From NCBI GenBank assembly GCA_043809585.1, contig JBDROZ010000003.1, positions 44,422 to 64,421 of the forward strand: DNA of 20,000 nucleotides. Reading direction: 5' to 3'. The stretch comes from Candidatus Eiseniibacteriota bacterium. Its GTDB lineage: Bacteria; Orphanbacterota; Orphanbacteria; Orphanbacterales; Orphanbacteraceae. The notes under the pieces were generated by a model. The model saw only the letters and a list, made by a program, of their open reading frames with translations. It did no database searches and was not told the origin of the DNA. Positions 2,834 to 19,115 of the stretch are shown piece after piece (position 1 is the first letter of the stretch; each line of letters starts with the position of its first letter). The position numbers were made by a program, and so were the translations under genes.

Positions 2834-2848
2834 CGGTCACCTCCAGCC

Positions 2849-2870
2849 CTAACCCTTACGTTAAGGTCAG
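2849..2870. promoter_or_regulatory. MerR-type dyad operator (probable autoregulatory site)
   Basis: ctaacccttac|gttaaggtcag, 8 of 11 positions palindromic, resembling ACCTT-N-AAGGT MerR-family dyads; overlaps the predicted TSS of the merR promoter. Confidence 0.6.
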
Positions 2871-2874
2871 GCCT

Positions 2875-2903
2875 AGAATACCATCGGCCTTCCCGCATGT
2901 CAA
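2875..2903 (-). promoter_or_regulatory. sigma70 promoter of the merR-sigma unit
   Basis: Minus strand TTGACA-17 nt-TATTCT with extended TG (TGgTATTCT). Confidence 0.75.
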
Positions 2904-3059
2904 CATAAATGCTCACATTTTTTTGACTTCCGGGGAATCCCGTCAACGTGTTATAAAAAAACAGGTTATAAGAATATGCCCGGGGAGATTCTTCTCCGGT
3001 TCTCGGTTCGGCAGGTGAAGAACCCGCCGGTTTTTTTCGAAACTGACCCCGAATCGTCT

Positions 3060-4925
3060 CTAGAGGCGGCCGGCGAGATGATCCCTGTACGCCCCTTCCG
3101 CGAGGGTCCGGAGCGGAAAATCGTGGGCGATCCAAAAGATGTTGCGCCTCTCCCATCCCGGTGCGAATCCCTCCGGAAAGCCGGCGAGGAGCCGCTCCCG
3201 GTCGGGGATCCTGCCCCGGAGACGCTCGACCATGAAGAGGGAGAAGTAGATCGTGTTCCTCTCCACCGGGTCCGGGGGGATGGCGCGGCGGAGAAACTCC
3301 CTGGCGTACCTTTCCCGGTACGATTCGGGGGAGGCGGACCGGCGGGCGAGAAGCCGGACCGAGCCGTTTCGGAAACGGCCGATCTCCTGGTGCTGCGGGT
3401 AGAGCCGGGCGGCGAGCGCCCCGGCGGGCCCCCGGACCAGCATGTAGTCGGCGAGGTCCGTCACAACGTCCCGGTCCAGGGTCCCGTAGGCCCGGGGCCA
3501 AGTCGCCCGGCGGTTGTACGCGTTGATCGCCGGGAAGTAGAAGAGGTCCTCGAACCGCTCGTACGCCCGCTCCCTCCCCCTCTCCCACTGGGGCAGGTCG
3601 AGGTCGTACGACACGGCCGGGGCGAAGTACCAGGTGAGCCCCAGAGCCTCGTTCGGCCCGAAGCCGGCGAGGGCGATGCTCTTCGTGAACCGCCAGCGGT
3701 AGATGTCGATGCTCCCGCCCGGAGATGTCCGGTGCCGGTCTCTTTCCGCGTCCGCGGCGACCATGGAAAGCTCGATCCTCTTCGCCTCGAGGGGCCCGGT
3801 CATCCGGTAAGGCAAATCCACCAGATCCCGAGTCACCGCGAGATACTGGGCGAGGGCGACGGCCACGGCCGCCGCGGCGAGGGCCGGCCGGAGACGCCTC
3901 CCCCGGATCCTCTCGATGCCGGCGGTGACGAGGAGAAGGGCCGGCACCAGGCAGGGAGCCATGTGGCGGGGCTCCTTCACGACCTGCATCGTCAGGACCA
4001 GGCAGGGGACGAGCCACCAGAGCCAGAGAACGATGAATCGGTCCCGGAGCGGCCCCGTCTTGCGCCCGCCGACTCGACGGCGAAGGGCGAAGGGGACGAC
4101 CAGAAGGAACGCCAGGAACCAGAGCCCGGTCCGGCCCGTCTGCACGGCATAGTAGAGGAGGGAATCGAGGGAGAGCCGGTCGGGTGGCCCGAGGAGCCTC
4201 ATGATCGGAATCCGGGTGTTGCCGAGGGAGAGATAGTATCGGAACGACTCGGGAGCGGCGAATCGGATCCCGAGGACCACAGCGGCGGCCGGAAGGAGGG
4301 TCGCGGCGGCGAGGAGGGCCAGCCGCCGCCCCTCCCTCGCCCGTAGGGCGGACACCCCTTCGAACAGGACGGGCCCCAAGAAGAAGAGGGCGAAGGTCAT
4401 CTTTATCAGAAGTCCGGCGGCGAAGAGCGCCCCGAAAAGGAGCGCGAAAGGCGCCCTCCGGAATCGGTCGGTGCGGAACCAGACCGCGAAAGCGAGGGCG
4501 ACCGCCGCCGTCAGAGTAAACTCGGTGTAGAGTTCCCGGGAGAGGCCGAGGAGCAGAGGGGCGCCGAGAACCAGCACGAGGGGGAAGGCCGGCGTGGTCC
4601 GGAGGCCGAAGGAACGGACGAGGAGGACGAGGGAGGCGGCGAGGACCAGCGCGGCGAAGAGATTCACGTGGAGGGCCGCCGCGGGGGTGTCCTTCACGGC
4701 GAGGAAGGGAACGACGAGATAGGGGAATGCGGACGCGACCGAGAAACCGCCCGCCGGCGCCCCCCCCTCCCGGAGGACCGAGGCGAAGTCGTGATACTGG
4801 GCGGGGTCCATCCAGGAGAACCCGTCCCGGTCCCGAATGTCCCGGTGCAGGTCGACGGCCCAGGCGGCGAGGAAGAGGGCGAGAATCAGCCAACCGATCC
4901 GGCCGAGGCGTTTCTTCCCTGCCAT
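3060..4925 (-). CDS. Polytopic membrane glycosyltransferase-like protein (GT-C fold, ArnT/PMT-like)
   Basis: About 11 hydrophobic segments, first-loop 'WMDPAQY', 'GLLIK.TF' and 'KEPRH..P' motifs typical of GT-C/ArnT-like proteins, and a soluble C-terminal domain. Confidence 0.7.
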   Translation of the reverse strand: MAGKKRLGRIGWLILALFLAAWAVDLHRDIRDRDGFSWMDPAQYHDFASVLREGGAPAGGFSVASAFPYLVVPFLAVKDTPAAALHVNLFAALVLAASLVLLVRSFGLRTTPAFPLVLVLGAPLLLGLSRELYTEFTLTAAVALAFAVWFRTDRFRRAPFALLFGALFAAGLLIKMTFALFFLGPVLFEGVSALRAREGRRLALLAAATLLPAAAVVLGIRFAAPESFRYYLSLGNTRIPIMRLLGPPDRLSLDSLLYYAVQTGRTGLWFLAFLLVVPFALRRRVGGRKTGPLRDRFIVLWLWWLVPCLVLTMQVVKEPRHMAPCLVPALLLVTAGIERIRGRRLRPALAAAAVAVALAQYLAVTRDLVDLPYRMTGPLEAKRIELSMVAADAERDRHRTSPGGSIDIYRWRFTKSIALAGFGPNEALGLTWYFAPAVSYDLDLPQWERGRERAYERFEDLFYFPAINAYNRRATWPRAYGTLDRDVVTDLADYMLVRGPAGALAARLYPQHQEIGRFRNGSVRLLARRSASPESYRERYAREFLRRAIPPDPVERNTIYFSLFMVERLRGRIPDRERLLAGFPEGFAPGWERRNIFWIAHDFPLRTLAEGAYRDHLAGRL

Positions 4926-5024
4926 CGGACGATTGCCTCCCCTCCTCGGGCCCGTCCGCGATTGACCGGCGCGGAGCGGACCCCGGGCCGGCGTCAGAGG
5001 TGCGATGGCCCGGCGGGGCCAAGG

Positions 5025-5741
5025 CTAACCTCGGGGGACCTGCGCCGGCGCCTGCTCCATCTCCTTCGACTTCTCGAAACGGAACGGGGACATGCGGACC
5101 CAGCTCCCCTCGGACGGGACGCCGGGAAAGATGACCCGGATCAGACCCTCGGGCAGGAACATCAGTGATTTCAGGTCCTCCGGAAATGCCCGCACCTCGC
5201 CGCCGTAAAGGGAGACCCCCTCCGACTCGACGTGATCGAGGCTCTGCTTCATCGCCTCCAGGTCCTTCTCCACGTTGTTCCGCTGGACCTCGTCCGTGAT
5301 GTTGGAAACCTGCTCCTCGACGAGCCGGATCTGCTCGGTCAGTCGGCTCCGCGCCTCCAGCTGCATGAGGGTGAGAGTGGAATCGACGGGGAGTGACGGA
5401 TCGATCGGGTAGACCGCGCTGAATCCCTCCCATCCGTAGTACAGGTTCCGGTGGGTGGCGGAAATGTCCCGGAACATGTCGAAGTAGACGGCGGGCGGAA
5501 CGTACCGGTTCAGGTTGATCGCCGCGTCGATCTCCATGTCGGCCTTGTTGAGACAGGCGTACTCGAGGGACTCGAAGGACTTGGGGATCAGCCATTCGAT
5601 CTTCTGGCTGAACGACTGAAGCGAATCCGGAATCGTCTTGATCTCCTTCCCCTCACCGCCCCCCTTCTTCCCACATCCGGCCAGGAAGACCAGGGCGGCC
5701 CCGAGGAGGATAGTCCTCCCGGCCGTCGATCGGTATCGCAT
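5025..5741 (-). CDS. Hypothetical lipoprotein
   Basis: Start reassigned to ATG 5741 ([23 protein letters not shown]), giving lipobox LAGC; GGAG upstream; coding-like composition; promoter just upstream. Confidence 0.75.
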
Positions 5742-5887: not shown

Positions 5888-5917
5888 TTGACGCCCCCCT
5901 CCCGGAGCCCCTATACT
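5888..5917 (+). promoter_or_regulatory. sigma70 promoter for the MBL-aroC unit
   Basis: TTGACG-18-TATACT, divergent from the previous promoter. Confidence 0.6.
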
Positions 5918-5981
5918 CTTCGGAGCGCGGGGGCGCCGACTAGCCCCCTTTCGCGCTCTTTCGGCCCGTCGAGGCGACCTC

Positions 5982-6650
5982 ATGAATCCGAACGGCCCAT
6001 GCTTCCCCGGCCCCTCCGGACCGGCCTCCCTGGCCGGGGGCCTTCGCTGGCTCGGGCACTCCTCCTTCCGCGTCGACGGATCGAAGACGGTCTACATCGA
6101 TCCGTGGAATCTCGGTCCCGGCCCTCACCCCCCGGCGGACCTCGTTCTCGTCACCCATCCCCATTACGATCATTGTTCCCCCTCCGACCTCGCCCGGATC
6201 CCGGGGATCGAGAGCGCGGAGATCGTGACCGTGGCGGACGGGGCGAGGAAGATCGGCCGGCCCTGCCGGGTGATCGCGCCCGGCGGGAGAACGACGGCGA
6301 AAGGGGTGGACGTCACGGCCGTGGCGGCGTACAACAAGGAGCGGCCCCACCACCCCCGTCTGAACGGCTGGGTCGGGTTCCTGTTCCGGATGGACGGCCG
6401 GACGATCTACCATGCCGGCGACACGGACCGGATTCCGGAGATGGCGGAGATACGCTGCCAGATCGCCCTCCTCCCGGTGGGGGGCTCGTACACGATGAAC
6501 GCCGAGGAGGCGGCCCTCGCCGCCGGCGACATGGAAGCGGAACTCGCGGTGCCCATGCACTACGGCGGCCCGGCGGGGACGGAGGAGGACGGGCACCATT
6601 TCCTCCGGCTATCCCCCGTCCCGGTCGCCCTGCTCCCGGCACGGCGTTAG
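5982..6650 (+). CDS. MBL-fold metallo-hydrolase (UlaG/UPF0173-like)
   Basis: WLGHSSF, IDPW, THPHYDH (HxHxDH), [15 protein letters not shown] and PMHY motifs; GAGG SD. Confidence 0.9.
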
Positions 6651-6667
6651 CGGAGAGGAGAAGCCCC

Positions 6668-7750
6668 ATGGGCAATACATTCGGGCACCTCTTCCGGGTC
6701 ACCACCTGGGGCGAGTCCCACGGCGGCGGCGTGGGCGTGGTGATCGACGGTTGTCCCCCGCGGCTCGAGGTGGACGAGGCGGAGATCCAATCCGAACTCG
6801 ACCGCCGCCGCCCGGGGCAGAGCGCGCTCACGACCCAGCGGAAGGAGACCGACCTGGTCCGCGTCTACTCGGGGATCTTCGAGGGGAAGACCCTCGGAAC
6901 GCCGATCCTCCTCCTCGTGGAAAACCAGGACGCCCGGCCCGGAGAGTACGAAGACCTCCGCGACGTTTACCGCCCCTCTCACGCCGACTTCACCTACGAG
7001 GCGAAATACGGAATCCGGAACTGGCAGGGGGGCGGCCGGGCGAGCGCCCGGGAGACGGTGGGACGCGTCGCCGCGGGCGTAGTGGCCCGGAAGATCCTCC
7101 ATCGGGAGGCGGAGACGGAGATCATCGCCTACGTCAAGTCGGTCCACGAAATCGACGCGACCGTCGACCCGGACCGGGTGAAGTTCCAGGACGTCGAGCA
7201 GAGCGAGGTGCGGTGTCCGGACGGGGAGGCGAGCCGGCGGATGGCGGAGTTGATCCGGGAGGCGAAGGAGGCGGGCGATTCCCTCGGCGGCGTCATCGAG
7301 TGCGTGGCCCGGAAGGTGCCGGCCGGTCTCGGCGAGCCGGTATTCGACAAGCTGGACGCGGACCTCGCGAAGGCATTCCTCTCCATCCCCGCCACGAAGG
7401 GTTTCGAGATCGGCTCGGGGTTCTCCGCCACCCGACTGAAGGGGTCGGAGCACAACGACCCGTTCGTGCCGAAGGAAGGGCGGATCGGGACGTCGTCCAA
7501 CCGCTCCGGCGGCGTGCAGGGGGGGATCTCGAACGGGGAGAACATCGTGGTGAGGATCGCCTTCAAGCCGACCGCCACGATCGCCAAGATGCAGAAGACC
7601 GTCTCCCGGGAGGGGAAGATCGCCGAAATCCGTCCCCGAGGACGCCACGACCCGTGCGTCCTTCCCCGGGCCGTCCCGATCGTGGAGGCGATGATGGCGA
7701 TCACCCTCGCCGATCACCTGCTCCGGCAGAATGCCCTCCGGGGACGCTGA
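6668..7750 (+). CDS. aroC: Chorismate synthase
   Basis: True start ATG 6668 ([19 protein letters not shown]); [28 protein letters not shown] and GRHDPC signatures; GGAG SD. Confidence 0.98.
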
Positions 7751-8191: not shown

Positions 8192-10021
8192 TCAATCCAG
8201 TTCGAACTCGGACCGCCAGTCCGAGTCCCCGTCCAGCGGTTTCTGTTTCGTCTTGTCGAGGACGTAGTTCTCCATCACGAGGTAGTCCATCTCGGTCCGC
8301 ATGAAGCAGAGATACGCGTCTTCCGGCGTGCAGACGATCGGCTCGCCCCGCACGTTGAAGGATGTGTTGATCACCACGGGGCAGCCCGTCTTCCCGCGGA
8401 AGGCGTCGATCAGCCGATGATAGCGGGGGTTCGTCTCCGCCGACACCGACTGGAGGCGCGCCGAGTAGTCGACGTGGGTGATCGCCGGCACCTCGGAGCG
8501 GGGCACGTTCAGCTTCGCGATGCCGAAGAGGCGCTGCTGCTCCTCGGTCATGGGGATCCGCTTCTCCTCTTTGACCCGGGCGACGAGAAGCATGTACGGG
8601 CTCTCCCGGTCGATCTCGAACCACTCGCTCGCCCGCTCGGCGAGGACCGTCGGCGCGAAGGGGCGGAACGACTCCCGGTACTTGATTTTCAGGTTCATCA
8701 CCGACTGCATCGTCCTCGACCTCGGGTCGCCGAGAATGGAACGGGAACCGAGGGCGCGGGGGCCGAACTCCATGCGCCCCTGGAACCAGCCGACCACCTT
8801 CTCGGCGGCGAGGAGTTCCGCCACGCGGTCGAAGAGGGCGTCGTCTTCGAGGCGCTCGAAGGCCGCCCCCTTCTTCTCCAGAAAGGCCCGGATCTTCTCG
8901 TCCTCGAACCGGGGGCCTAGGTATGATCCGCGCTGGGCGTCCCGGCCGGCGGGGGACGGACGGGGTTTTCCGAGATAGCGGTGCCAGCCGAAGAGGGCCG
9001 CGCCGAGGGCGCCCCCCGCGTCGCCCGCCGCCGGCTGGATCCAGATGTCGTCGAAGGGGCCTTCCCGGAGGATCTTGCCGTTGGCGACGCAGTTCAGCGC
9101 GACGCCGCCGGCGAGACAGAGGTTCTTCATCCCCGTCTCCCGGTGGACGGTCCGGGCCATCCGCATCATCACCATCTCCACCACCTCCTGGACCGATCGG
9201 GCGAGATCCATCTCCCGGGGCGTGAGATCGCTCTCCGGCCTGCGGGGCGGCCCGCCGAAGAGATCGGCGAAGCGCCGGTTCGTCATGCTGAGGCCCGAAA
9301 GATAGTTGAAGTAGCGGAGGTCGAGACGGAAGGATCCGTCATCCTTGACGTCGATCAGATGTTCGAGAATCGCGTCCACGTATTTCGGCTCGCCGTAGGG
9401 GGCGAGACCCATCACCTTGTACTCGCCCGAGTTTACCTTGAAGCCGGTGAAGTACGTGAACGCCGAATAGAGAAGGCCGAGGGAGTGGGGGAAATGGATC
9501 TCCTTCAGGATGCGCAAATCGTTCCCCCGCCCGACGCCGTAGCTCGTGGTCGTCCACTCGCCGACGCCGTCGATGGTGAGGAACGCCGCCTCGTCGAAGG
9601 GGGACGGGAAGAAGGCGGAGGCCGCGTGGGACTCGTGGTGCTCCGTGAAGAGGATCTTCCCTTCGTAGTCGAGCTCTTTCCGGATCAGGTCCTTCATGAA
9701 CAGCTTCTGCTTCAGCCAGAGAGGGATCGCCTTGATCAGGGAACGGACGCCGAGGGGGGCGGTCACCAGGTAGGTTTCGAGGATACGCTCGAACTTCGTG
9801 AAAGGGCGATCGTAGAAGACGACGAAGTCGAGGTCTTTCGCGGTGATCCCCCCCTGCCGGAGACAAGACCCGACGGCCCGGTTCGGGAATCGGAAGTCGT
9901 GCTTCTTGCGGCTGAACCGTTCCTCCTGGGCGGCGGCGACGATGCGGCCGTCCCGGACGAGGGCGGCGGCGCTGTCGTGATAGAACGCCGAAATCCCGAG
10001 GATGTTCACGGAAGCGGTCAT
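8192..10021 (-). CDS. O-carbamoyltransferase (NodU/CmcH/SxtI family)
   Basis: ILGISAFYHDSAAAL, EHHESHAASAF, DGVGE, EYKVMGLAPYG, AGGVALNC, GRMEFGPRALG, RESFRPFAP and NTSFN motifs; start set at ATG 10021 after GGAGGA. Confidence 0.95.
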   Translation of the reverse strand: MTASVNILGISAFYHDSAAALVRDGRIVAAAQEERFSRKKHDFRFPNRAVGSCLRQGGITAKDLDFVVFYDRPFTKFERILETYLVTAPLGVRSLIKAIPLWLKQKLFMKDLIRKELDYEGKILFTEHHESHAASAFFPSPFDEAAFLTIDGVGEWTTTSYGVGRGNDLRILKEIHFPHSLGLLYSAFTYFTGFKVNSGEYKVMGLAPYGEPKYVDAILEHLIDVKDDGSFRLDLRYFNYLSGLSMTNRRFADLFGGPPRRPESDLTPREMDLARSVQEVVEMVMMRMARTVHRETGMKNLCLAGGVALNCVANGKILREGPFDDIWIQPAAGDAGGALGAALFGWHRYLGKPRPSPAGRDAQRGSYLGPRFEDEKIRAFLEKKGAAFERLEDDALFDRVAELLAAEKVVGWFQGRMEFGPRALGSRSILGDPRSRTMQSVMNLKIKYRESFRPFAPTVLAERASEWFEIDRESPYMLLVARVKEEKRIPMTEEQQRLFGIAKLNVPRSEVPAITHVDYSARLQSVSAETNPRYHRLIDAFRGKTGCPVVINTSFNVRGEPIVCTPEDAYLCFMRTEMDYLVMENYVLDKTKQKPLDGDSDWRSEFELD

Positions 10022-10254
10022 GGACGATGCGCTCCTCCGGGGCGCGGCGCCCCCTTCTTCGGATCGGCAGGTGACGGGGGACCCCTGAGGGCCACCGGTC
10101 CCGGCCCGGCCGACGGGACTCATTGTAGCGCAAAGGGCAACGGCGGGGTAGCGGGGCGGGAACCCCGGCAGACTGGAGCGGGGAACGCCCGATCGAGTAT
10201 GCTCCGTCCGAGACGAACCGGCTTCGCGTACTTCATGAAGGAGAACGAATCCCC

Positions 10255-10794
10255 ATGCTGAAGAGAGAGAACGCGGTCGTGGTGGTCGTGGACGTTCAGG
10301 ACCGGCTGCTCCCCCATATCCGGAAGCACGAGGAAGTGACGGAGGCGGTGGCGAAGCTGATCCGCGGTTGCAGGGTGCTCGGTGTGCCCGTGGTGGTGAC
10401 CGAGCAGTATCCCGAGGGACTCGGGCCCACGAACCGGCTCTTGAAGGAGGAGTTCGACCGGTGGGAGCCGATCGTGAAGTCGACCTTCTCCTGTTGCGGG
10501 GAGGGTTCCTTCGTGGAGGCGGTGGAGAAGACCGGGCGGAAGGAGGTCCTGCTCTGCGGCATCGAAGCCCACGTCTGCGTTTACCAGACGGCCCGGGACC
10601 TGCTCGAGAAGGGGTACCGGGTGCACCTCCTCGTGGACGGCGTCTCCTCCCGCCGCAAGATCGACCGGAAGACGGCGGTCGCCCGGATGGTGTCGATGGG
10701 CGCCATCCTCGCCACCGTCGAGATGGCCCTCTTCGAGATGCTGGAGGTGTCGGGCACGGAGGAGTTCAAGAAGATCAGCAAGATCGTGAAGTAG
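10255..10794 (+). CDS. Isochorismatase-family cysteine hydrolase (YcaC/ISOC2-like)
   Basis: VVVDVQ, TEQYPEGLGPT, KSTFSC and GIEAHVCVYQT motifs; AAGGAG SD. Confidence 0.92.
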   Translation: MLKRENAVVVVVDVQDRLLPHIRKHEEVTEAVAKLIRGCRVLGVPVVVTEQYPEGLGPTNRLLKEEFDRWEPIVKSTFSCCGEGSFVEAVEKTGRKEVLLCGIEAHVCVYQTARDLLEKGYRVHLLVDGVSSRRKIDRKTAVARMVSMGAILATVEMALFEMLEVSGTEEFKKISKIVK

Positions 10795-11050: not shown

Positions 11051-11689
11051 TCAGAGGCCGGCGATTCCGAAAAAGATCGATCGGAAGATCGCGAGGAAGG
11101 GAGTGATGATCAACCAGAGGCCGCCTGTCACGAGAAGTCCGATGACGATGAACATGCCGTACGGTTCGAGGTCCCAGTAGACCTTCGCGACGCTCCGGGG
11201 CACGAAGGGGAGGATCACCCGCGAGCCGTCGAGGGGCGGGATCGGCATCAGATTGAAGAGGGCGAGAAGCACGTTGATCTCGATCGCGTACCTGAGCAAG
11301 TTCGAGGCGATGCTCCCGAACCCGCCCAGTCCGAGCCGGTAGAGGATCGCCGCGACGAAGGCCAGGATCAGGTTCGACGCGGGACCTGCCGCTCCGGTCT
11401 TCGCCATACCCACCATGGGGTCACGGAAATGGGTCGGGTTGATCGGCACCGGCTTCGCCCACCCGAACAGGAACCGGCTTCCGGTAGCGATGAGGGCGAG
11501 GGGGACGAGGACAGACCCGACGATGTCGACGTGGGCGAGGGGGTTCAGGGTAAGGCGCCCGGCCTTCTCCGCCGTCGGGTCTCCGAGACGGTTCGCCACG
11601 TAGCCGTGAGCGAACTCGTGGACCACGATGGAAAAGAAGAGCACGAAGAGAGGCGGCAGCGCTTCGACGACTCCAAAGCTCATGGGCAT
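11051..11689 (-). CDS. Site-2 protease family (M50) zinc metalloprotease
   Basis: HEFAH, GDPT, RLTLNPLAHVD, GWAKPVP, AGPASN and FNLMPIPPLDG motifs; ATG 11689 follows AAGGA. Confidence 0.93.
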   Translation of the reverse strand: MPMSFGVVEALPPLFVLFFSIVVHEFAHGYVANRLGDPTAEKAGRLTLNPLAHVDIVGSVLVPLALIATGSRFLFGWAKPVPINPTHFRDPMVGMAKTGAAGPASNLILAFVAAILYRLGLGGFGSIASNLLRYAIEINVLLALFNLMPIPPLDGSRVILPFVPRSVAKVYWDLEPYGMFIVIGLLVTGGLWLIITPFLAIFRSIFFGIAGL

Positions 11690-11709
11690 GATTTCCTTTC
11701 GGTACTGGT

Positions 11710-11738
11710 AAAGTAGGGGCCCGCCGGGCAAAGCGCAA
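11710..11738 (-). promoter_or_regulatory. Putative sigma70 promoter for the site-2 protease
   Basis: Minus strand TTGCGC-17-TACTTT. Confidence 0.45.
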
Positions 11739-11748
11739 GGGATAAGGC

Positions 11749-12387
11749 ATGGGGAGGGATCCGGACATCTACCGCGCCGTCGACGCGGGCGGGACGGCGG
11801 AGACGAAGGTGAAGGGATCGAGGTTCCTCGGCCTCGCCTTCCCCGCCCCGACGGTCGAGGTCGCGGAGGAGATGATCGAAGCGCTCCGGAAGAAGCACTT
11901 CGACGCCACCCATGTCTGTTTCGCCTGGCGCGTGGGGCACGGACAAGAGGAGGCGCGGAGGATGGCGGATGCCGGGGAACCTTCCGGGACGGCGGGGACG
12001 CCGATCATGCAGGTCCTGGAGCGCTCGGGAGTGTCGGACGGCGGGATCGCCGTGATCCGGTGGTTCGGCGGGGTCAAACTCGGGACGGGGGGCCTCATCC
12101 GCGCCTACGGCGAGTGCGCCGGCCTCGCCCTCGAAGCCGCGACGATCGGAGAGCGCGTTCTCCGGAAGCCTCTCGAAGTGTCTTTCACCTACCCGCAGGC
12201 AAGCGCCGTCCTCCGCCTTGCCGAGAGGTACGGGGCCCTCGCCGACGAGTCCCACTACGGCGAAGAGGCCCGCATCCGCTTCGCCGTCCCCGCGAGCAAA
12301 CTGCCGATCTTCCGGGACGCCCTCGTCGACGCCACCGCCGGCACCATTCGGTTCCTCTCCCAGCCGGGGTCAGACGCCGGTGTCTGA
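11749..12387 (+). CDS. yigZ: YigZ/IMPACT-family protein
   Basis: KGSRF, ATHVCFAWR, DAGEPSGTAG.P and RWFGGVKLGTGGLIRAY motifs. Confidence 0.9.
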   Translation: MGRDPDIYRAVDAGGTAETKVKGSRFLGLAFPAPTVEVAEEMIEALRKKHFDATHVCFAWRVGHGQEEARRMADAGEPSGTAGTPIMQVLERSGVSDGGIAVIRWFGGVKLGTGGLIRAYGECAGLALEAATIGERVLRKPLEVSFTYPQASAVLRLAERYGALADESHYGEEARIRFAVPASKLPIFRDALVDATAGTIRFLSQPGSDAGV

Positions 12388-12494
12388 CCCTAACGAAATC
12401 CGCCACACAGGCTGAGGCCGGCGCGCTGCGGAATTCGCCGCTCCGCCCTAGCCCCCTGGCTCCCGGGCGATCCGTCCGCGGTCTCCTTCTCCTC

Positions 12495-12523
12495 TTGCGC
12501 TTTGCCGCCGCTCCCTATATTTT
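12495..12523 (+). promoter_or_regulatory. Putative promoter giving a leaderless transcript of the metal-uptake operon
   Basis: TTGCGC-17-TATTTT; the ATG at 12531 lies 7 nt after the -10 and has no well-spaced SD. Confidence 0.5.
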
Positions 12524-12530
12524 CCGGGGC

Positions 12531-12818
12531 ATGAGAGTCCTCCGCACCGCTCCGGGCCTGGCGCCTTTCCTCTTTCTCGTACTCCTGGTCGCGGCGGCGC
12601 CCCTGCCGGTTCCCCACGATCATGGCGTCGATGGCGCCGACCACGAGAGATGCCCGATCTGCCTCGCGGCCCATCGGGGGGGCGACGCGATTCTCACGGC
12701 CGGGGCGGTTGTTCCTTCCCCCCTTGTCTCCCGCCCCCTCGCGCCGGCGCCCCCCGCTCCGGCTCCCGTCCCCATCGACGGTCCCCGTCTGGTGAACCGG
12801 GGTCCTCCCTCGCGCTGA
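12531..12818 (+). CDS. Small exported leader protein, DUF2946/CruR-like (signal segment, HxH, CxxC, Pro-rich linker, C-terminal RGPP)
   Basis: 95 aa: MRVLRTAPGLAPFLFLVLLVAAAPLPVPHDHGVDGADHERCPICLAAH...PAPPAPAP...NRGPPSR*; this is the C-terminal part of the longer 12060-12818 track ORF. Confidence 0.8.
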   Translation: MRVLRTAPGLAPFLFLVLLVAAAPLPVPHDHGVDGADHERCPICLAAHRGGDAILTAGAVVPSPLVSRPLAPAPPAPAPVPIDGPRLVNRGPPSR

Positions 12819-12888
12819 TCCGTTTCGACGATCGCCGTCCGCCCTTGGGAGGGGCGGTTCGTGAATGCGGATCTCGCAACCGGGAGGA
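12803..12888 (+). promoter_or_regulatory. SD-sequestering mRNA hairpin (translational attenuator)
   Basis: tcctccc (12803-12809, within the Gly-Pro-Pro codons) complements gggagga (12882-12888, SD of the next gene); gatccgt (12817-12823) pairs with gcggatc (12867-12873), with inner acga/tcgt and tcgcc/ggcgg pairs. Confidence 0.65.
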
Positions 12889-12895
12889 ACGTTCC

Positions 12896-14035
12896 ATGGG
12901 CAAGACTATTCCGGCGGCAACGGCCGCCGTCATCATCCTTCTTCTCATAGGCTCGCCTCCGGCCGCCAGGGCGAGCGCCACGGCGACAGGCGTTTCCCGC
13001 GACTTCAACCCCGCCGTCAGCGTCAACGCGCTCCTTCTCTATCGCTCGGGTCTCGGGGAGACGACGGTGGAGCCCGATTCCGGGTCCGAGGCGGGCCACG
13101 ACCACGGGGCCGCCGGGGACGGCTTCGCCGTCCAGGAGACGGAGCTGCGGCTCACGTCGATCATCGACCCCTACGCGAAGGCGGATTTCGTCTTCGCCAT
13201 GCACGGCACGGACGGCTTCGAGCTCGAGGAAGGGTTCGTCCGCCTGATCTCGCTCCCCCGGGGCCTCGGTCTCCGGGCGGGCAAAGCGTATTTCGAGTTC
13301 GGCAAGCACAACGCCTACCACACCCACCAGTTCCCCTTCGTGGAGCGTCCCTACGCCTGGGACGCCTTGCTCGGCGAACACGGCCTGAACGGCGCGGTGG
13401 TCGAGGCGAGCTGGCTGACGCCCCTCCCCTGGTACGCCGAAGTGATCGCCTACGGGTTCCCGTCCATCGAGACCGTCTACGGCGACCACGAGATCCCGGA
13501 GAACGAGTGGGGAGGCGGGGCGCGAATCCGGCAGTTGTGGGAGGCGGGAGACCGGGCGACGGTCGATCTGGGAGTCTCCTATGCCGGCGGCGACGCACTG
13601 CGCGGCGGGCGCCGTCACTTCACCGGGGCCGATCTCACCTTCAAGTGGAGCGGAACCGGGAGAAACCCGAGGACCTTGGAGATTCAGAGCGAGTGGTTCC
13701 GCCGGATGGAGGACCTCGAGTCTTGGAACCCCCATCAGGACGGCTTCTACGCGCACGCCCTCGGCCGGGTCACCCGCCGGGTCGTGGCCGGCGCCCGGAT
13801 CGACTTCCTCCGGTCCGACGAATTCACCGGATCGGAGGGGGGCGACGTCTTCTCGGAAACGAACCAGGAGAACCCCGACGTCACGACCTTCACCGGGTCC
13901 CTCGCCTTCGTGCCGAGCGAGTTTCAGGCGATCCGGCTCGACGTGATTCACCGGGACTTCGGCGATAGCGACGAGCAGGCGGGCCGGCTCCAGTACAACT
14001 TCACCATCGGCAGCCACCCGGCGCACCGGTACTAG
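12896..14035 (+). CDS. His-rich outer-membrane beta-barrel protein, putative zinc/metal uptake porin
   Basis: Start ATG 12896 after GGGAGG; signal peptide; FNPAVSV, QETEL...IDPY, LEEGF, FGKHNAYHTH and C-terminal LQYNFTIGSHPAHRY; alternating beta-strand pattern; 379 aa with no TonB plug length. Confidence 0.75.
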   Translation: MGKTIPAATAAVIILLLIGSPPAARASATATGVSRDFNPAVSVNALLLYRSGLGETTVEPDSGSEAGHDHGAAGDGFAVQETELRLTSIIDPYAKADFVFAMHGTDGFELEEGFVRLISLPRGLGLRAGKAYFEFGKHNAYHTHQFPFVERPYAWDALLGEHGLNGAVVEASWLTPLPWYAEVIAYGFPSIETVYGDHEIPENEWGGGARIRQLWEAGDRATVDLGVSYAGGDALRGGRRHFTGADLTFKWSGTGRNPRTLEIQSEWFRRMEDLESWNPHQDGFYAHALGRVTRRVVAGARIDFLRSDEFTGSEGGDVFSETNQENPDVTTFTGSLAFVPSEFQAIRLDVIHRDFGDSDEQAGRLQYNFTIGSHPAHRY

Positions 14036-14047
14036 GAGGGCGGACCC

Positions 14048-14965
14048 ATGAGAAGACATGTATTCGCCGCTTCCATCGCCGCGATTCTGGCGTTCGGCGT
14101 TTTCGCCCCCGCCTCGGCGAAGCTGAAGGTGGTGGCGACGCTCGCCGAGATCGGCGCCCTCGCGGAGGAGATCGGAGGGGAGCGGGTGGAGGTCGAAGTC
14201 CTCGCCAAGGGGAACGAGGACCCGCATGTCCTCCCCGCGAAGCCGAGCCACAGCCGCCGTCTCATGAAGGCGGACCTGCTCATCGCGAACGGGCTTCAGC
14301 TGGAGGTAGGATGGCTGCCGCTGCTCATCGAAGGAGCCCGGAACCCGCGCGTCCGCCCCGGATCGCCGGGGTATCTGGAGCTCGGCACGTTCATCGAACC
14401 CCTCGAAGTGCCGACGGGGGCGATCGACCGGAGCGGAGGGGACGTCCATCCCGAAGGGAACCCTCACTTCACCGTCGACCCGGCTGTGTATCCGGCGCTG
14501 GGGGAAGCGGTGGCGGAGCGGCTCTCGACTCTCGATCCCGAGGGTGCGGCATACTACGAGGAGCGGCGGGAGCACTTTACCGCCCATTGGATGGAGGCGC
14601 TCCGGGGTTGGAGAGGGCGGCTCGGCTTTCTCGAGGGCGAGGCGGTGGTGACCTTCCACCAGCAGTGGGAATACTTGGCGCGCACCTTCGGCCTCCGGAT
14701 CCTCGGGAAGATCGAGGACCGGCCGGGCATCCCCCCCACGCCCCGGCATCTCGCCGATCTGGAAAGCACGATCGCGGCCGATGGGGTCCGATGGATCCTC
14801 TACTCCGACCTGACCTACCCGGATGTCCCCGAGAAGGTCGCCGCCCGCACCGGGTGTCGGGCGGTGCGGCTCCCCCAGTCGGTGGACAGCCGGGAGGGGA
14901 CGAAGACCCTGACGGCCTGGTTCGATACACTCGTCGCCGCCTTCGATGCGGCGAAGGAGAATTGA
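14048..14965 (+). CDS. Metal ABC transporter substrate-binding protein (ZnuA/TroA cluster A-I)
   Basis: Signal peptide, KVVAT, EDPH, ADLLIANGLQLE.GW, DVHPEGNPH, FHQQW and PGIPPTPRH motifs; AGGAGG SD. Confidence 0.92.
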   Translation: MRRHVFAASIAAILAFGVFAPASAKLKVVATLAEIGALAEEIGGERVEVEVLAKGNEDPHVLPAKPSHSRRLMKADLLIANGLQLEVGWLPLLIEGARNPRVRPGSPGYLELGTFIEPLEVPTGAIDRSGGDVHPEGNPHFTVDPAVYPALGEAVAERLSTLDPEGAAYYEERREHFTAHWMEALRGWRGRLGFLEGEAVVTFHQQWEYLARTFGLRILGKIEDRPGIPPTPRHLADLESTIAADGVRWILYSDLTYPDVPEKVAARTGCRAVRLPQSVDSREGTKTLTAWFDTLVAAFDAAKEN

Positions 14966-14966
14966 C

Positions 14967-15788
14967 ATGGAATTGGTGCGGCTCATGGCCGCCCCCTTCG
15001 CCGCGAGCGTGGTGCTCGTTCTGATCCACGCCTACCTCGGCGGGCACGTGCTCCGGCGGGGCGTCATCTTCGTCGACCTCGCCATGGCCCAATTTGCCGC
15101 CCTGGGCGCCGCCATCGGCCTGCTGGTCGGGGTCGATCACGACACGCCCCTCGGATACGGCCTCGGTCTCGTCTCCGCCTTCATCGCGGCGGCCCTCTTC
15201 TCCTGGTCGCGGCAGCGCATTCGGATCGTACCCCAGGAGGCGGTCATCGGGATCGCCTACGTGCTCGCGTCGAGCGCGGTGGTGGTGATCGCGGACCGGG
15301 TCCCCCACGGCGCGGAACACATCAAGCACGCATTGGTCGGGACCATCCTTTGGATCGGGTGGGGGGACGTGGCGAAAACGGCGGTTCTCTACGGCGCCCT
15401 CGGGCTCCTCCTCGCCCTCACCCATTCCCGGCTCGAGATCGTCAGCCGGGATCCGGCGGAGGCGAGGCGGCGGGGGATGAACCTATTCGTCTGGGACTTC
15501 CTCTTTTACGGCGTCTTCGCTTTCGTCGTCACGAGTTCGGTGCAGATCGCCGGCGTTCTCCTCGTCTTCACGATCCTCATCGTGCCGTCGGTCTTCACCG
15601 CCTTCGCGGGACTCACGGGCCGGCGGCGACTCCCCGGCGCCTGGATCTTCGGCGTCGCCATGAGCCTCGTCGGCATGATCCTGTCCTTCTATCTCGATCT
15701 GCCGACGGGAGCCACGGTAGTGGTCGTCTTCGGCCTCGCCCTCTTCATCACCACCCTCCTCTTCTCCGGGGAGACACACTTAGTGTAG
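14967..15788 (+). CDS. Metal ABC transporter permease (ZnuB/MntB-like)
   Basis: GGHVLRRGVIFVDLAMAQ, EAVIGIAY, LVGTILW, SSVQIAGVLLVF and DLPTGA motifs; ATG 14967 after AAGGAG. Confidence 0.9.
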   Translation: MELVRLMAAPFAASVVLVLIHAYLGGHVLRRGVIFVDLAMAQFAALGAAIGLLVGVDHDTPLGYGLGLVSAFIAAALFSWSRQRIRIVPQEAVIGIAYVLASSAVVVIADRVPHGAEHIKHALVGTILWIGWGDVAKTAVLYGALGLLLALTHSRLEIVSRDPAEARRRGMNLFVWDFLFYGVFAFVVTSSVQIAGVLLVFTILIVPSVFTAFAGLTGRRRLPGAWIFGVAMSLVGMILSFYLDLPTGATVVVVFGLALFITTLLFSGETHLV

Positions 15789-16179: not shown

Positions 16180-16208
16180 TTGCCATAGGTTAATCAATAT
16201 GCTAGAGT
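16180..16208 (+). promoter_or_regulatory. sigma70 promoter for the vWA gene
   Basis: TTGCCA-17-TAGAGT with extended TG, in an AT-rich patch. Confidence 0.6.
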
Positions 16209-16317
16209 GCTCTGCTTAGAAGCTCCAGAACTCCCCCGAGGTCCGGATCGCCCCTGGCCGTCCAAAGCGCTGGAAAACCACGCAACTGTCCGGCAACCAG
16301 AAAGGCAGAGTGCTCAC

Positions 16318-17265
16318 TTGAGAAACGGCATACTGTTAGTCGTCGGAGTCTTATTCCTCTGTAGTGGCGGTGTGGGCCTGGCGGACGTCAGCCCGAACGA
16401 AGCGGGATTGGCGCTCCCTCGCGGCGAGGGCGTCTCCGAATACCAGCCGCCGACCCTCATCGATAGCGATTGCAACTGCATCGATCTCGTGCTCGTGATC
16501 GACGACACGGGTAGCATGTTCGGCGCGATCGCCAACGTGGCGGCCGGAATCGAAGACATCATCGATTTGGCCGACTCCACCTGCGGTAGCGTCCAGGCGG
16601 CCCTCGTGACGTTTTCGGACACAGTGGAGGTCGACGAGGACCTGACCTTCAACGTGGCGGCCGTGAAGACGGCGGTGGGCAATCTGATCGCCACCGGCGG
16701 CGTCGGCATTCCGGAGGCTTCCGACGAGGCGCTCCGCGAGGTGCTGACCGAGCCGGGCACGATCTGCACGAAGATCGGCGATTTCACGACCGGGGCGTTT
16801 CGGGACACCTGCTGCCGGGTCGTCGTGCTCGTGACGGACGCCCAGCCGGGCGGCTGCGACGACTTCTACGATGCGGGAGTCGACATGCCGAACGCTCATG
16901 ACCGGGCCCTCGAGGCGGCGGCGGCAGGCATTCAGATCGGCGCGCTGTTCGTTCCTACCTTCGGCGATCCGGGCGATATCGTGACCATCATGACCGACTA
17001 CGCCGGGACTTCCGGCGGCGTCTACGGCCAGACCGCCGCGGACGGGAACGGCACGGCGGCGGCCATCGAGCAGCTCATTCTGGACTGCATCGGGCAGGCG
17101 CAGACCGAGCTTTGCTGCATCCCCGACGCGCACCAGTGCGTCGAGGTCCTTGCCGGCCAGTGCGACGCGCTCGGCGGTTATGTCGTCTCCGACTGTTCGG
17201 AATGCGAGTTCACGGGGACCGAGAGTTCGAGCTGGGGAACCGTCAAGAAGTTGTTCCGCGACTGA
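16318..17265 (+). CDS. Secreted von Willebrand factor A (vWA) domain protein with Cys-rich module and SWGxVKxLF tail
   Basis: Probable TTG start at 16318 gives a signal peptide (MRNGILLVVGVLFLCSGGVGLA); MIDAS-like DLVLVIDDTGSM, ATGG..PEA and LVTDA; Cys-rich CC..C..C..GG..C..C; ends TESSSWGTVKKLFRD. Confidence 0.8.
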   Translation: MRNGILLVVGVLFLCSGGVGLADVSPNEAGLALPRGEGVSEYQPPTLIDSDCNCIDLVLVIDDTGSMFGAIANVAAGIEDIIDLADSTCGSVQAALVTFSDTVEVDEDLTFNVAAVKTAVGNLIATGGVGIPEASDEALREVLTEPGTICTKIGDFTTGAFRDTCCRVVVLVTDAQPGGCDDFYDAGVDMPNAHDRALEAAAAGIQIGALFVPTFGDPGDIVTIMTDYAGTSGGVYGQTAADGNGTAAAIEQLILDCIGQAQTELCCIPDAHQCVEVLAGQCDALGGYVVSDCSECEFTGTESSSWGTVKKLFRD

Positions 17266-17333: not shown

Positions 17334-17603
17334 CGCGCGGAACGATGGTGACGGGATGGCCGCCGCCGTCGGCCACACCCTCATGGGACCGTCCACCCGG
17401 TGCGGCCGGAAACCGCACCTCCCACCCCGTCCCCCGCGCCACGGTCAACTAGTGTCTGTCCCCATTTCGGGAGGGATGGTAGACTTGTCGGAGCCGCTGG
17501 CTAGGGCGGCTCGTTTTCAATGTCCCGGCACAGAACCGGTCCGGCAACTCGATGCCGGACAGATAGTTACCCTTCTATCCCCGCGGGAATGAGGAAGAGA
17601 GCG

Positions 17604-19115
17604 ATGAAGGACTTCTTGCAGCGTCTCGGGATTCGAGAGGTGAATTCCGGGGCGTGCCACGCCGAGTGGCTCGACACGAAAGGGGGCGAACTCGTCACCT
17701 TCTGTCCGGCCGACGAGAAACCGATCGCCAAAGTGAACCAGGCGACCGAGGACGATTACGAGACGGTCGTGCGGAAGGCCCAGGAGGTCTTCAAGGAGTG
17801 GCGGATGCTCCCCGCGCCTCAGCGGGGCGAGATCGTGCGCCAGATCGGCGAGGCCCTTCGGGAGAAGAAGGACGACCTCGGCCGCCTCGTCTCGTACGAG
17901 ATGGGCAAGATCCGCTCCGAGGGTCTCGGCGAGGTGCAGGAGGCGATCGACATCGCCGACTTCGCCGTCGGCCTTTCGCGTCAGCTCTACGGCAAGACCA
18001 TGCACTCCGAGCGCCCCCTCCACCGGATGTACGAGCAGTGGCACCCCCTCGGGACGATCGGCATCGTCACGGCCTTCAACTTCCCCGTCGCCGTATGGGC
18101 GTGGAACGCCATGATCGCCATGGTCTGCGGCGACACGATGATCTGGAAGCCCTCCTCCCAGACGCCGCTCTGCGCCATCGGCACCCAGAACGTGGTGAAC
18201 GAGGTGCTCAGCAAGAACGGCTGGGGGGGCGTCTCGGGCGTCGTCATCGGCCGGGGGAGCACGGTGGGTGAGAAGATGATCGCCGACCGCCGCCTTCCCC
18301 TCATCTCGGCGACCGGCTCCTGCCGGATGGGCCGCCGCATCGGCGAGGTCGTCGCGGGGCGCCTCGGCCGCTGCCTCCTCGAACTGGGCGGGAACAACGC
18401 GATCATCGTCGACGAAAGCGCGGACCTCGACATGACGGCCCGGGCGATCCTCTTCGGCGCCGTCGGCACCGCCGGCCAGCGGTGCACCTCGACCCGGCGA
18501 ATCTTCGCCCACAAAAAAATCCACGACACTCTCGTCCATAGCCTGGTCAAGGCGTACGGATCGATCCCGATCGGCGATCCCCTCGACACGAAGACCCTCA
18601 TGGGACCCCTCGTGAACGAGGAAGCCGTGGTCACCATGGAGAAGGCGATCGGGCAGGCGAAAGCCGAGGGGGGCAAGATCCTCACCGGCGGCAAGCGGAA
18701 AGAGGGCGCCGGCCATTTCGTGGAGCCGACCATCGTCAGCATCGACCCCGCGGCGAAGATCGTCCAGGACGAGACCTTTGCGCCGATCCTCTACGTCTTC
18801 CCTTACGAGGACCTGGATCGGGCGATCGAATGGCACAACGCCGTCGACCAGGGGCTCTCGTCCGCCATGTTCACGAACAACGTCCGGCGGGGCGAAACCT
18901 TCCTCAGCCATCGTGGTTCGGACTGCGGCATCGCCAACCTGAACATCGGGACGAGCGGCGCCGAGATCGGCGGCGCCTTCGGCGGCGAGAAGGACACGGG
19001 GGGGGGCAGGGAAGCGGGCTCCGATTCTTGGAAGGCGTACATGCGCCGGCAAACCTGCACAATTAACTGGGGGAAAGAACTTCCCCTGGCCCAGGGCGTG
19101 AAGTTTGATTTGTGA
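17604..19115 (+). CDS. Aldehyde dehydrogenase, ALDH7 family (piperideine-6-carboxylate / aminoadipate-semialdehyde dehydrogenase-like)
   Basis: GLSRQLYG.TMHSERP.HRMYEQWHPLG, AFNFPVAVWAWN, LELGGNN, GTAGQRCT, DCGIAN.NIGTSGAEIGGAFGGEK.TGGGRE.GSD.WK.YMRRQT and LPLAQGV motifs; ATG 17604 after GAGGA. Confidence 0.95.
   Translation: MKDFLQRLGIREVNSGACHAEWLDTKGGELVTFCPADEKPIAKVNQATEDDYETVVRKAQEVFKEWRMLPAPQRGEIVRQIGEALREKKDDLGRLVSYEMGKIRSEGLGEVQEAIDIADFAVGLSRQLYGKTMHSERPLHRMYEQWHPLGTIGIVTAFNFPVAVWAWNAMIAMVCGDTMIWKPSSQTPLCAIGTQNVVNEVLSKNGWGGVSGVVIGRGSTVGEKMIADRRLPLISATGSCRMGRRIGEVVAGRLGRCLLELGGNNAIIVDESADLDMTARAILFGAVGTAGQRCTSTRRIFAHKKIHDTLVHSLVKAYGSIPIGDPLDTKTLMGPLVNEEAVVTMEKAIGQAKAEGGKILTGGKRKEGAGHFVEPTIVSIDPAAKIVQDETFAPILYVFPYEDLDRAIEWHNAVDQGLSSAMFTNNVRRGETFLSHRGSDCGIANLNIGTSGAEIGGAFGGEKDTGGGREAGSDSWKAYMRRQTCTINWGKELPLAQGVKFDL

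Follow-up and report, generated by a model that had tools for sequence, protein, structure and literature searches.

A putative CruR-like arrest leader ahead of a porin-ZnuA-ABC-3 metal uptake operon in an Eiseniibacteriota genome

How might an operon for metal uptake be controlled when no operator of the usual metal repressors can be recognized in front of it? Bacterial zinc uptake is, in the textbook case, controlled by the repressor Zur, and the question is raised by a 20,000-nt stretch of DNA (the window; Candidatus Eiseniibacteriota bacterium, assembly GCA_043809585.1, contig JBDROZ010000003.1, positions 44,422 to 64,421 of the forward strand) in which a 95-codon open reading frame (ORF) ending close to the motif RGPP precedes genes for a porin-like outer-membrane protein, a ZnuA-type metal-binding protein and an ABC-3 family permease. 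The analysis of this leader ORF indicates that it is most likely an unannotated relative of the CruR and CutF leader peptides, one that would switch metal uptake by stalling its own ribosome. The specific form favoured here, with modest confidence, is a cis-acting leader of the CruR/CutF kind in which arrest at RGPP unmasks the porin gene's Shine-Dalgarno (SD) sequence and metal, most likely Zn(II), relieves the arrest. The arrest, its relief by metal, the identity of the metal and the unmasking of the SD as output are steps that we infer rather than observe.

The leader family and the operon that it precedes

12531-12818, + strand: leader ORF (protein P0001), 95 codons plus TGA, from the translation
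12555-12599, + strand: hydrophobic N-terminal segment, approximately residues 9-23, after Arg2 and Arg5, read from the translation
12615-12674, + strand: His/Cys cluster made up of HDH, H38, CPIC and H48, from the translation
12615-12623, + strand: HDH, leader residues 29-31
12651-12662, + strand: CPIC, leader residues 41-44
12663-12797, + strand: 45-codon spacer from CxxC to RGPP, residues 45-89, with a Pro/Ala-rich stretch included
12798-12809, + strand: RGPP, residues 90-93 (CGG GGT CCT CCC), arrest-type motif
12816-12818, + strand: leader stop codon TGA, two codons past RGPP

Translation gives the leader the anatomy set out in the original prediction, which had been made from the letters of the window alone, namely a 95-aa product with a hydrophobic N-terminus, HDH, CPIC, a Pro-rich linker and RGPP. 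Residues 1-23 are basic and hydrophobic, with a hydrophobic stretch of about 15 residues that has a comparable segment in all aligned homologues, and the N-terminus is probably a signal peptide or an N-in membrane anchor. The His/Cys cluster is presumed to be the metal-binding site of the nascent chain. RGPP is followed by Ser, Arg and the TGA and thus lies 2 residues from the C-terminus; its earlier designation as an arrest motif agrees with the report that RGPP and RAPP are the two strongest arrest cores, the most robust and refractory to elongation factor P (EF-P) (Fujiwara 2025, PMC12992588).

Relatives of the leader were collected through the downstream porin. A genome search with this porin found a homologue in 17 of 41 genomes, the window's own included, giving 18 loci, of which 13 carry a small same-strand ORF with CxxC and a C-terminal R[AGS]PP upstream of the porin gene, three carry variant leaders (RAPP with a single Cys, HAPP, and RSPP without CxxC) and two have no leader. 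As a query for related contig loci the single porin sequence returned no relatives, and a second sample of 80 contig loci, the best of 192 porin matches, was obtained with an alignment of 6 closer porins; three of these repeat loci of the first search. When a leader is called as an upstream ORF that ends in [RHK]xPP at most 8 residues from the stop and at most 450 nt from the porin start, one is present in 64 of the 80 loci, which bears out the expectation that homologous operons would keep an RxPP leader. The motifs of these 64 are RAPP (30), RGPP (16), RSPP (13), RRPP (2), RDPP, HSPP and RNPP (1 each), and RGPP is therefore a regular variant of the family and not an oddity. Two of the 64 are doubtful (a 26-residue ORF and an ORF cut by the contig end) and were dropped from later statistics. 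The leader always lies upstream on the porin strand, with a gap of 26-220 nt in 61 of 64 loci. Past the motif, 61 of 64 leaders have 1-5 further residues, and the CxxC-to-motif spacing is 42-47 residues in 43 of 64. The 80 loci are titled, among others, Nitrospinota, Bdellovibrionota, Myxococcota, Latescibacterota, Gemmatimonadota, Eisenbacteria, Binatia, Calditrichota and Neomarinimicrobiota. No RxPP leader was detected in 16 of them, one of which has only 57 nt of upstream sequence; such loci may have another regulator or a diverged leader. Several leaderless porin-ZnuA-ABC-3 loci are titled Polyangiales or Polyangiaceae (among L088, L089, L090, L094, L096, L103, L112, L115 and others).

A single-sequence, word-indexed search with the leader returned nothing at E<=0.01, and relatives surfaced only via profiles. 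A family profile built from the last 78 residues of each of 38 leaders and searched against 1.84 billion cluster representatives retrieved 606 of them at E<=0.001. The 150 best representatives have a median length of 97 residues and end in RAPP (87), RSPP (23), RGPP (22), another [RHK]xPP (6) or no such motif (12), and CxxC stands 42-47 residues ahead of the motif in 138 of them. In the alignment of these 150 (A7), which were not selected on the motif, only the two Cys are invariant, and two His, the Arg and the two Pro are nearly so. The alignment of the 38 leaders (A6) shows the same pattern, though Cys invariance there follows from the selection of its rows for CxxC at 42-47. Across the family the spacer is variable in sequence and fixed in length, which suits a ruler spanning the exit tunnel better than a folded domain. 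Within the window's own genome the family profile matches significantly only the leader itself (E 3.7e-8), and the other match, at E 0.12, falls short of significance. Among 93 database relatives 92 have no Pfam domain and one has an unrelated one, and all given names read "hypothetical protein". Conservation on this scale indicates that the leader ORF is a real gene, and it exposes an annotation gap, in that this branch of leaders is missed by Pfam and labelled hypothetical.

The relation of the leader to the DUF2946 family, of which CruR is the prototype, is close in architecture and distant by profile. In its hallmark form CruR has 45 residues between CxxC and RAPP, a distance kept to within 1-2 residues, and the addition of 5 residues to this spacer impairs copper control (Roy 2022, PMC9426467). 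The leader likewise has a CxxC, an RGPP (a variant of RAPP) 2 residues before the stop and exactly 45 intervening residues, and it is the first gene of a metal operon with a non-coupling intergenic region, a 77-nt gap followed by porin, ZnuA and ABC-3 genes. The Pfam DUF2946 model (PF11162) matches leader residues 21-93 over profile positions 44-117 of 117, at E 0.041. It matches 6 of 16 homologous leaders at E<1, none above the cut-off, 9 of 150 family representatives at E<=1e-4, and 0 of 301 genomes searched at E<=1e-5. Membership by hidden Markov model (HMM), a check that had been suggested, did not hold (15.1 bits against a gathering cut-off of 23.7), while the CxxC, the 45-residue spacing and the RGPP stood, and the family is best filed as a probable sister branch of DUF2946.

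12896-14035, + strand: porin-like outer-membrane protein P0005, 379 aa, with a signal peptide and a C-terminal ...GSHPAHRY with an aromatic end
14048-14965, + strand: ZnuA-type periplasmic metal-binding protein P0002, 305 aa, Pfam ZnuA, E 3.8e-41
14946-15788, + strand: ABC-3 family permease P0003, 280 aa, Pfam ABC-3, E 1.1e-25, its first 20 nt shared with the end of the ZnuA gene

The genes behind the leader are those of an importer, as had been predicted from a porin and a Znu-type system. P0005 has no Pfam or NCBIfam family and its sequence profile matches OprP/OprO weakly (E 0.05). An AlphaFold2 model from 12 homologues has 16 strands, with a predicted local distance difference test score (pLDDT) of 71.6 and a predicted template modelling score (pTM) of 0.72, and its top Foldseek matches are OmpT, OprO/OprP and OmpF-type general porins (E 7e-9 to 1e-6, template modelling scores (TM) 0.5-0.6), so that P0005 is, by its modelled 16-strand barrel, a porin-fold outer-membrane protein. 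Across the porin family H142, H144 and H374 (P0005 numbering) are invariant, a loop near residues 66-70, modelled at low confidence, is rich in His, and the C-terminal G-x-H-x-x-H-x-[YF] is conserved. The ATG at 12865 in the ORF list was rejected as the porin start; it lies in another frame and its translation is Arg/Gly-rich junk. The annotation name 'zinc-regulated TonB-dependent outer...' is ill-fitting for a 16-strand porin-like barrel.

P0002 has as its best NCBIfam match AztC, under the cut-off of that model, and among solved structures its nearest relatives bind zinc. The three His motifs of Synechocystis ZnuA (1pq4/2ov1), which we take to be the Zn ligands of that protein, line up with DPH, NPH and FH in P0002. 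In 73 of 80 loci the porin gene is followed by ZnuA on its own strand, and in 68 by both ZnuA and ABC-3; among the leader-bearing loci the corresponding figures are 59 and 56 of 64. Neither the window nor any of the 80 loci, which reach up to about 800 nt past the permease gene, showed an ABC ATPase, as recognized by Walker-A plus signature motif, and the ATPase of this module must be encoded elsewhere or shared. On a separate contig of the same genome (C6; L118 1209-3117) lies a second, canonical-looking zinc system, in which a fur-family gene is joined by a ZnuA that has a His-rich loop and by a znuC-like ATPase that could serve the window's permease. Zinc is the likeliest metal, to judge from the neighbouring genes and the ZnuA ligands. 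The leaders of L041, L043, L047, L049 and L051, which precede the closest named porin homologues (47-55 % identity), have H-x-F-C-[ST]-L-F-[HQ] in place of CxxC and keep RAPP or RGPP; a mixed Cys/His site of this kind would be better suited to Zn(II) than the Cu(I)-type CxxC.

The second zinc system is preceded by a Fur-like AT-rich box. This box has no match in the window with up to 3 mismatches allowed, and no inverted repeat of at least 7 nt occurs in 12380-12540. Zur/Fur control at the locus was rejected, as neither box nor inverted repeat was found upstream, in agreement with the earlier remark that no obvious Zur/Fur box is present. Searches by tblastn with three Fur-family proteins placed a Fur gene in 0 of the 80 related loci, for these queries. 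In one distant genome (L009 534-989) a Fur-family gene lies immediately upstream of a RAPP leader.

Predicted base pairing over the porin Shine-Dalgarno sequence

12803-12809, + strand: anti-SD heptamer tcctccc within the Gly-Pro-Pro codons (GGT CCT CCC), paired with 12882-12888 in the minimum free energy (MFE) and centroid structures
12882-12888, + strand: SD gggagga of the porin gene, 7 nt ahead of the ATG at 12896
12803-12888, + strand: 86-nt hairpin with an outer anti-SD:SD stem and an inner long stem-loop across the 77-nt intergenic region (RNAfold)

The codons of the putative arrest motif are also the predicted pairing partner of the next ribosome-binding site. The heptamer tcctccc is the exact complement of gggagga, and RNAfold of 12790-12900 (MFE -52.3 kcal/mol) closes an 86-nt hairpin through these two arms in both MFE and centroid structures, as had been proposed; the hairpin reappears when folded in a 171-nt context. 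At this locus an SD-shielding stem-loop of the CutF/SecM type is therefore present in the predicted fold. The cost of opening the SD is 9.5 kcal/mol, compared with 6.7 +/- 2.0 in mononucleotide shuffles, all 5 SD core bases pair inside the modelled footprint of a stalled ribosome, and the presence of that footprint lowers the cost from 9.5 to 6.6 kcal/mol.

For statistics across the family, leaders were deduplicated at 60 % peptide identity, and 54 of 63 were kept, the window's own included. The first Pro codon of the motif is CCU in 29 of the 54, where 10.8 +/- 2.8 would be expected from the Pro usage of adjacent genes, and the second is CCU in 15; a CCU followed by CC gives CCUCC, the complement of GGAGG. 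Synonymous recoding was applied to 51 leaders, the other three falling outside a gap range of 20-230 nt, and real leader ends pair with the SD slightly better than their recodings (mean z -0.57, Wilcoxon p 7e-4), with only 16 % of loci in the best 5 % of their own recoding null. One further locus without an SD was dropped, and in MFE folds of the remaining 50 from the Arg codon to the porin start the partner of the SD is the RxPP codons in 17 and the tail or stop codons in 18, while at least 3 SD bases pair inside the modelled footprint in 30.

The same 50 loci were used for partition-function estimates with a stall footprint that has its P site on the first Pro and covers -12 to +14 nt, and with a mock footprint shifted 30 nt upstream. 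The mean cost of opening the SD is 6.38 kcal/mol in the free RNA, 4.59 with the stall and 6.21 with the mock. The stall cuts this cost by at least 3 kcal/mol in 13 loci, compared with 2 for the mock, and by at least 2 kcal/mol in 20. Relative to mononucleotide shuffles of the stretch between Arg codon and SD, the real sequence makes the SD costlier to open at 38 of 50 loci (6.38 versus 5.21 kcal/mol, p 2e-5). In two alignable subgroups the RNAalifold consensus pairs CCUCC with GGAGG, and one of them additionally pairs the Arg-codon region with the start-codon region. Taken together, these predictions point to sequestration of the SD by the leader's last codons as a real tendency of the family, seen in roughly two thirds of its members (35 of 50), which is neither universal nor proven. 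The anti-SD/SD switch as originally conceived thus survives as this family tendency; the specific role assigned in it to the arrest codons applies in only 17 of 50 loci, and at the locus itself the pairing is no better than that of recodings.

Candidate mechanism and competing explanations

The model best supported by analogy combines the sensing logic of CruR with the output of CutF and SecM. During translation of the leader the ribosome would arrest at RGPP with its P site on Pro92 (CCT) and its A site on Pro93 (CCC), a register taken from CruR, for which toeprinting in vitro places motif codon three in the P site and codon four in the A site (Fujiwara 2025, PMC12992588). The His/CxxC cluster, 46-61 residues from the peptidyl-transferase centre, would at that point be just out of the exit tunnel. 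With its P and A sites on 12804-12809, the stalled ribosome would cover tcctccc and keep the 86-nt hairpin open, leaving the porin SD free and allowing the porin, ZnuA and ABC-3 uptake genes to be translated. When metal, most likely Zn(II), is plentiful, it would bind the nascent His/Cys site, and folding or pulling force would free the ribosome, which would terminate two codons on; the hairpin would then re-form and uptake would be switched off, and Rho acting on the untranslated C-rich RNA may reinforce the shut-off. This polarity, that of CruR with arrest as the on state and metal as the off signal, is favoured because the cargo is an importer. The wider proposal, in which a nascent-chain zinc sensor forms a widespread CruR-like branch that governs the porin-ZnuA-ABC-3 importer translationally, apparently in place of a Zur operator, with one heptamer serving as both stall site and RNA switch, is more tentative, and we would put it somewhat short of an even chance.

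Several observations weigh against this mechanism. The leader falls under the DUF2946 gathering cut-off, CxxC is absent from 21 of 64 leaders, and the case for zinc comes only from neighbouring genes, CxxC being a classic Cu(I) site. At the locus the fold is not exceptional, with a z-score of -1.69 and 11 of 200 shuffles at least as stable. Synonymous recoding of the last six leader codons, weighted by local codon usage, gives a null mean of -13.8 kcal/mol for the leader-end:SD duplex, compared with -14.5 for the real one (z -0.24). Because Pro-Pro codons almost inevitably complement a G-rich SD in a G+C-rich genome such as this, the pairing of tcctccc with gggagga is real, yet here it does not go beyond what the peptide sequence dictates. 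Under the modelled stall the cost of opening the SD is still 6.6 kcal/mol, and an alternative weak stem with 12909-12913 can form. The locus alone is thus weak evidence, and that beyond chance comes from comparison across loci, where the SD is paired elsewhere in 8 of 50 loci and mostly unpaired in 7 (15 together) and the effect of the stall is partial, reaching 3 kcal/mol in just those 13 of 50. The loci are moreover interrelated, so that p-values overstate their independence, and the CCU bias could equally stem from a codon or tRNA requirement of the arrest itself. In the two RNAalifold subgroups, compensatory changes that would be informative are almost absent; each arm is under constraints of its own, and the anti-SD/SD covariation looked for in homologous operons is for that reason uninformative.

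The same leader and arrest could act mainly through Rho-dependent attenuation, as in the published mechanism of CruR (Roy 2022, PMC9426467), with the stalled ribosome blocking the loading of Rho on the C-rich 3' half of the leader, its release leading to termination before or within the porin gene, and the SD hairpin being secondary or incidental. The RNA at 12691-12810 is rich in C (53-54 %, with 25-26 % G), the last 120 leader nt have a higher C-minus-G skew than the porin gene in all 54 deduplicated loci (mean +0.146 versus -0.001), and 12300-13000 has no intrinsic terminator. The C excess may, however, stem from Pro/Ala/Ser-rich coding, a G content of 25 % is high for a Rho utilization (rut) site, and C of at least 30 % together with G of at most 20 % is found in only 20 of 54 leaders. 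The intergenic region, at 77 nt and strongly structured, is also unlike the 162 nt of CruR, and Rho alone leaves both the family-wide SD sequestration and the CCU bias unexplained. As the main output Rho is therefore considered unlikely; the two outputs are compatible and not mutually exclusive. Reversal of the polarity, so that periplasmic metal binding induces or prolongs the stall and the operon is on at high metal, is highly improbable. CutF, a DUF2946-type leader with an SD-shielding stem-loop, is reported to act in this way for the copper oxidase CutO (Ozturk 2025), and the present leader has a probable export segment. The cargo here is nevertheless an importer module, whose induction by excess metal would be harmful, RGPP with a 45-residue spacing is of the CruR type and not the PPP of CutF, and arrest at RAPP/RGPP is reported to be intrinsic and EF-P-refractory (Fujiwara 2025, PMC12992588).

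It is distinctly unlikely that metal regulation plays no part, with the leader product being a mature exported peptide or anchor that binds metal through His/Cys and acts together with the porin, or a monitor of Sec export, and the hairpin a by-product of the Pro codons. Any coding of RGPPSR gives the anti-SD pairing seen at the locus, strict co-occurrence with the porin also fits a protein partner, and RAPP-type peptides are classically secretion monitors (Fujiwara 2025, PMC12992588). A folded partner protein is hard to reconcile with conservation at only six positions and a spacer kept in length and not in sequence, which resembles a ruler. Also against this reading, the leader always lies upstream, on the same strand and, in 61 of 64 loci, at the gap recorded above. 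RGPP is, in addition, reported to be among the most strongly avoided tetrapeptides of proteomes, with the C-termini of small exported upstream-ORF (uORF) products as the exception (Fujiwara 2025), and the His/Cys site, the most conserved feature after RxPP, would be needless for a pure secretion monitor.

The favoured reading, a metal-relieved arrest that unmasks the porin SD, can be set against the known systems. CruR (Bp2923) of Bordetella pertussis, the prototype of DUF2946/PF11162, is a small peptide that is exported, as the present one probably is, and whose gene likewise comes first in an operon for metal uptake, ahead of an outer-membrane transporter, with CxxC, 45 residues and R-x-P-P 2-3 residues before the stop, and the expected logic, in which arrest keeps uptake on and metal relieves it, is proposed here by analogy. 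It differs in its motif (RAPP versus RGPP) and in its score, the present leader being under the Pfam cut-off, in its cargo (a TonB-dependent transporter with PepSY_TM, in place of a 16-strand porin-like protein, a ZnuA-type protein and ABC-3), in an intergenic region of 162 nt with Rho-dependent termination as opposed to 77 nt folding over the SD, and in its metal, copper as against likely zinc; the leader here occurs in non-proteobacterial phyla. CutF (Rhodobacter capsulatus cutFOG; PMC9973294; 10.1101/2025.02.05.636593) is also a leader of the DUF2946 type, with a Cys motif for metal and a Pro motif at the C-terminus; it is exported, as the present leader probably is, and its stem-loop is reported to shield the next gene's ribosome-binding site until melted by the stalled ribosome. 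In contrast to the present leader, with its RGPP, CruR-like spacing and importer cargo implying the opposite polarity, CutF has CxxxC and PPP, stalls in an EF-P-dependent and copper-induced manner, and switches on a detoxifying oxidase.

ApdA, ApdP, ApcA and the Streptomyces lividans set (PMC12992588), together with SecM (RAGP), have in common with it an R-[AG]-P-P core close to the C-terminus, in a small secretory or membrane protein whose gene lies upstream of a regulated gene, and SecM shares the SD-unmasking output. These peptides monitor Sec or YidC or are uncharacterised, whereas here a His/CxxC site stands at fixed distance before metal-import genes, and in place of a downstream secA, secDF or yidC there are porin, ZnuA and ABC-3 genes. 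Zur-repressed znuABC has in common with the module a ZnuA-type protein with three His motifs, here a cluster A-I binding protein, and an ABC-3 permease. It differs in that the module has the porin gene first, no Zur/Fur box or adjacent fur gene found, and no ATPase gene, so that permease and ATPase are not joined in one cluster.

Part of the novelty originally claimed is lost on comparison with the literature. The published CutF model already has a stem-loop that shields the SD and is opened when a DUF2946-type leader stalls. Extension to a different metal is also less new, since DUF2946/CutF-like leaders have been linked to copper genes, RND (resistance-nodulation-division) efflux and TonB-dependent transporters, and those with His-only clusters to HupE/UreJ, implying Ni/Co (Roy 2022, PMC9426467; Ozturk 2023, PMC9973294). 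The supplementary uORF list of Fujiwara 2025 (PMC12992588) contains at least 9 occurrences of 'zinc-regulated', and two leaders from it have CxxC at the family spacing; leaders of this module are thus already in that bulk list, and its main text does not discuss them. The words 'zinc', 'ZnuA' and 'porin' are absent from the main texts of Ozturk 2023 (PMC9973294) and Fujiwara 2025 (PMC12992588), and two supplementary text files of the former contain no 'ZnuA', 'PF01297', 'zinc' or 'porin', though its other supplements (File S1) may list such neighbours. A Caulobacter Zur-regulon table includes two DUF2946 genes, one heading the czr efflux cluster, which is a hint of a zinc link for DUF2946. The annotation phrase 'zinc-regulated TonB-dependent outer' does not occur in the papers turned up by the literature search, and literature searches found no described zinc or ZnuA arrest leader and no description of a porin-ZnuA-ABC-3 leader module.

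To our knowledge, control by a metal through translation arrest has so far been shown only for copper, in CruR and CutF. If the wider proposal is right, this would be the first non-copper metal shown to act via translation arrest and the first such leader shown to control a porin. If the leader works as in the favoured reading, the repertoire of arrest peptides would gain a second metal and, in the form of a diffusion porin coupled to a ZnuA/ABC-3 importer, a new class of transporter. The mechanism would reach beyond the Proteobacteria (Nitrospinota, Bdellovibrionota, Latescibacterota, Gemmatimonadota, Eisenbacteria and others) and would have a compact design in which the Pro-Pro arrest codons double as anti-SD.

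Upstream region and other genes of the window

11749-12387: YigZ/IMPACT gene, upstream neighbour of the leader

Between this gene and the leader, TATATT at 12516-12521 ends 9 nt ahead of the leader ATG, and TTGCGC lies 15 nt upstream of TATATT. No SD precedes the leader ATG, and the mRNA from which the leader is translated may be leaderless or nearly so. A scan of 12300-13000 for consensus promoters and intrinsic terminators gave no matches, and no Rfam family matches this interval at E<=1. The remaining genes of the window are as follows.

2623-5595, - strand: ORF of 990 aa, no Pfam match at E<=1e-4
5888-7750: ORF of chorismate synthase, Pfam domain from residue 269
8192-10123, - strand: carbamoyltransferase (Pfam)
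10255-10794: isochorismatase (Pfam)
11051-11731, - strand: M50 peptidase, fragment match (Pfam)
16207-17265: VWA-domain protein (Pfam)
17520-19115: aldehyde dehydrogenase (Pfam)

The 990-aa ORF may be a real unknown gene or a spurious frame of high G+C content. As the Pfam domain of the chorismate synthase begins only at residue 269, the true start of this gene would lie later than that of the ORF.

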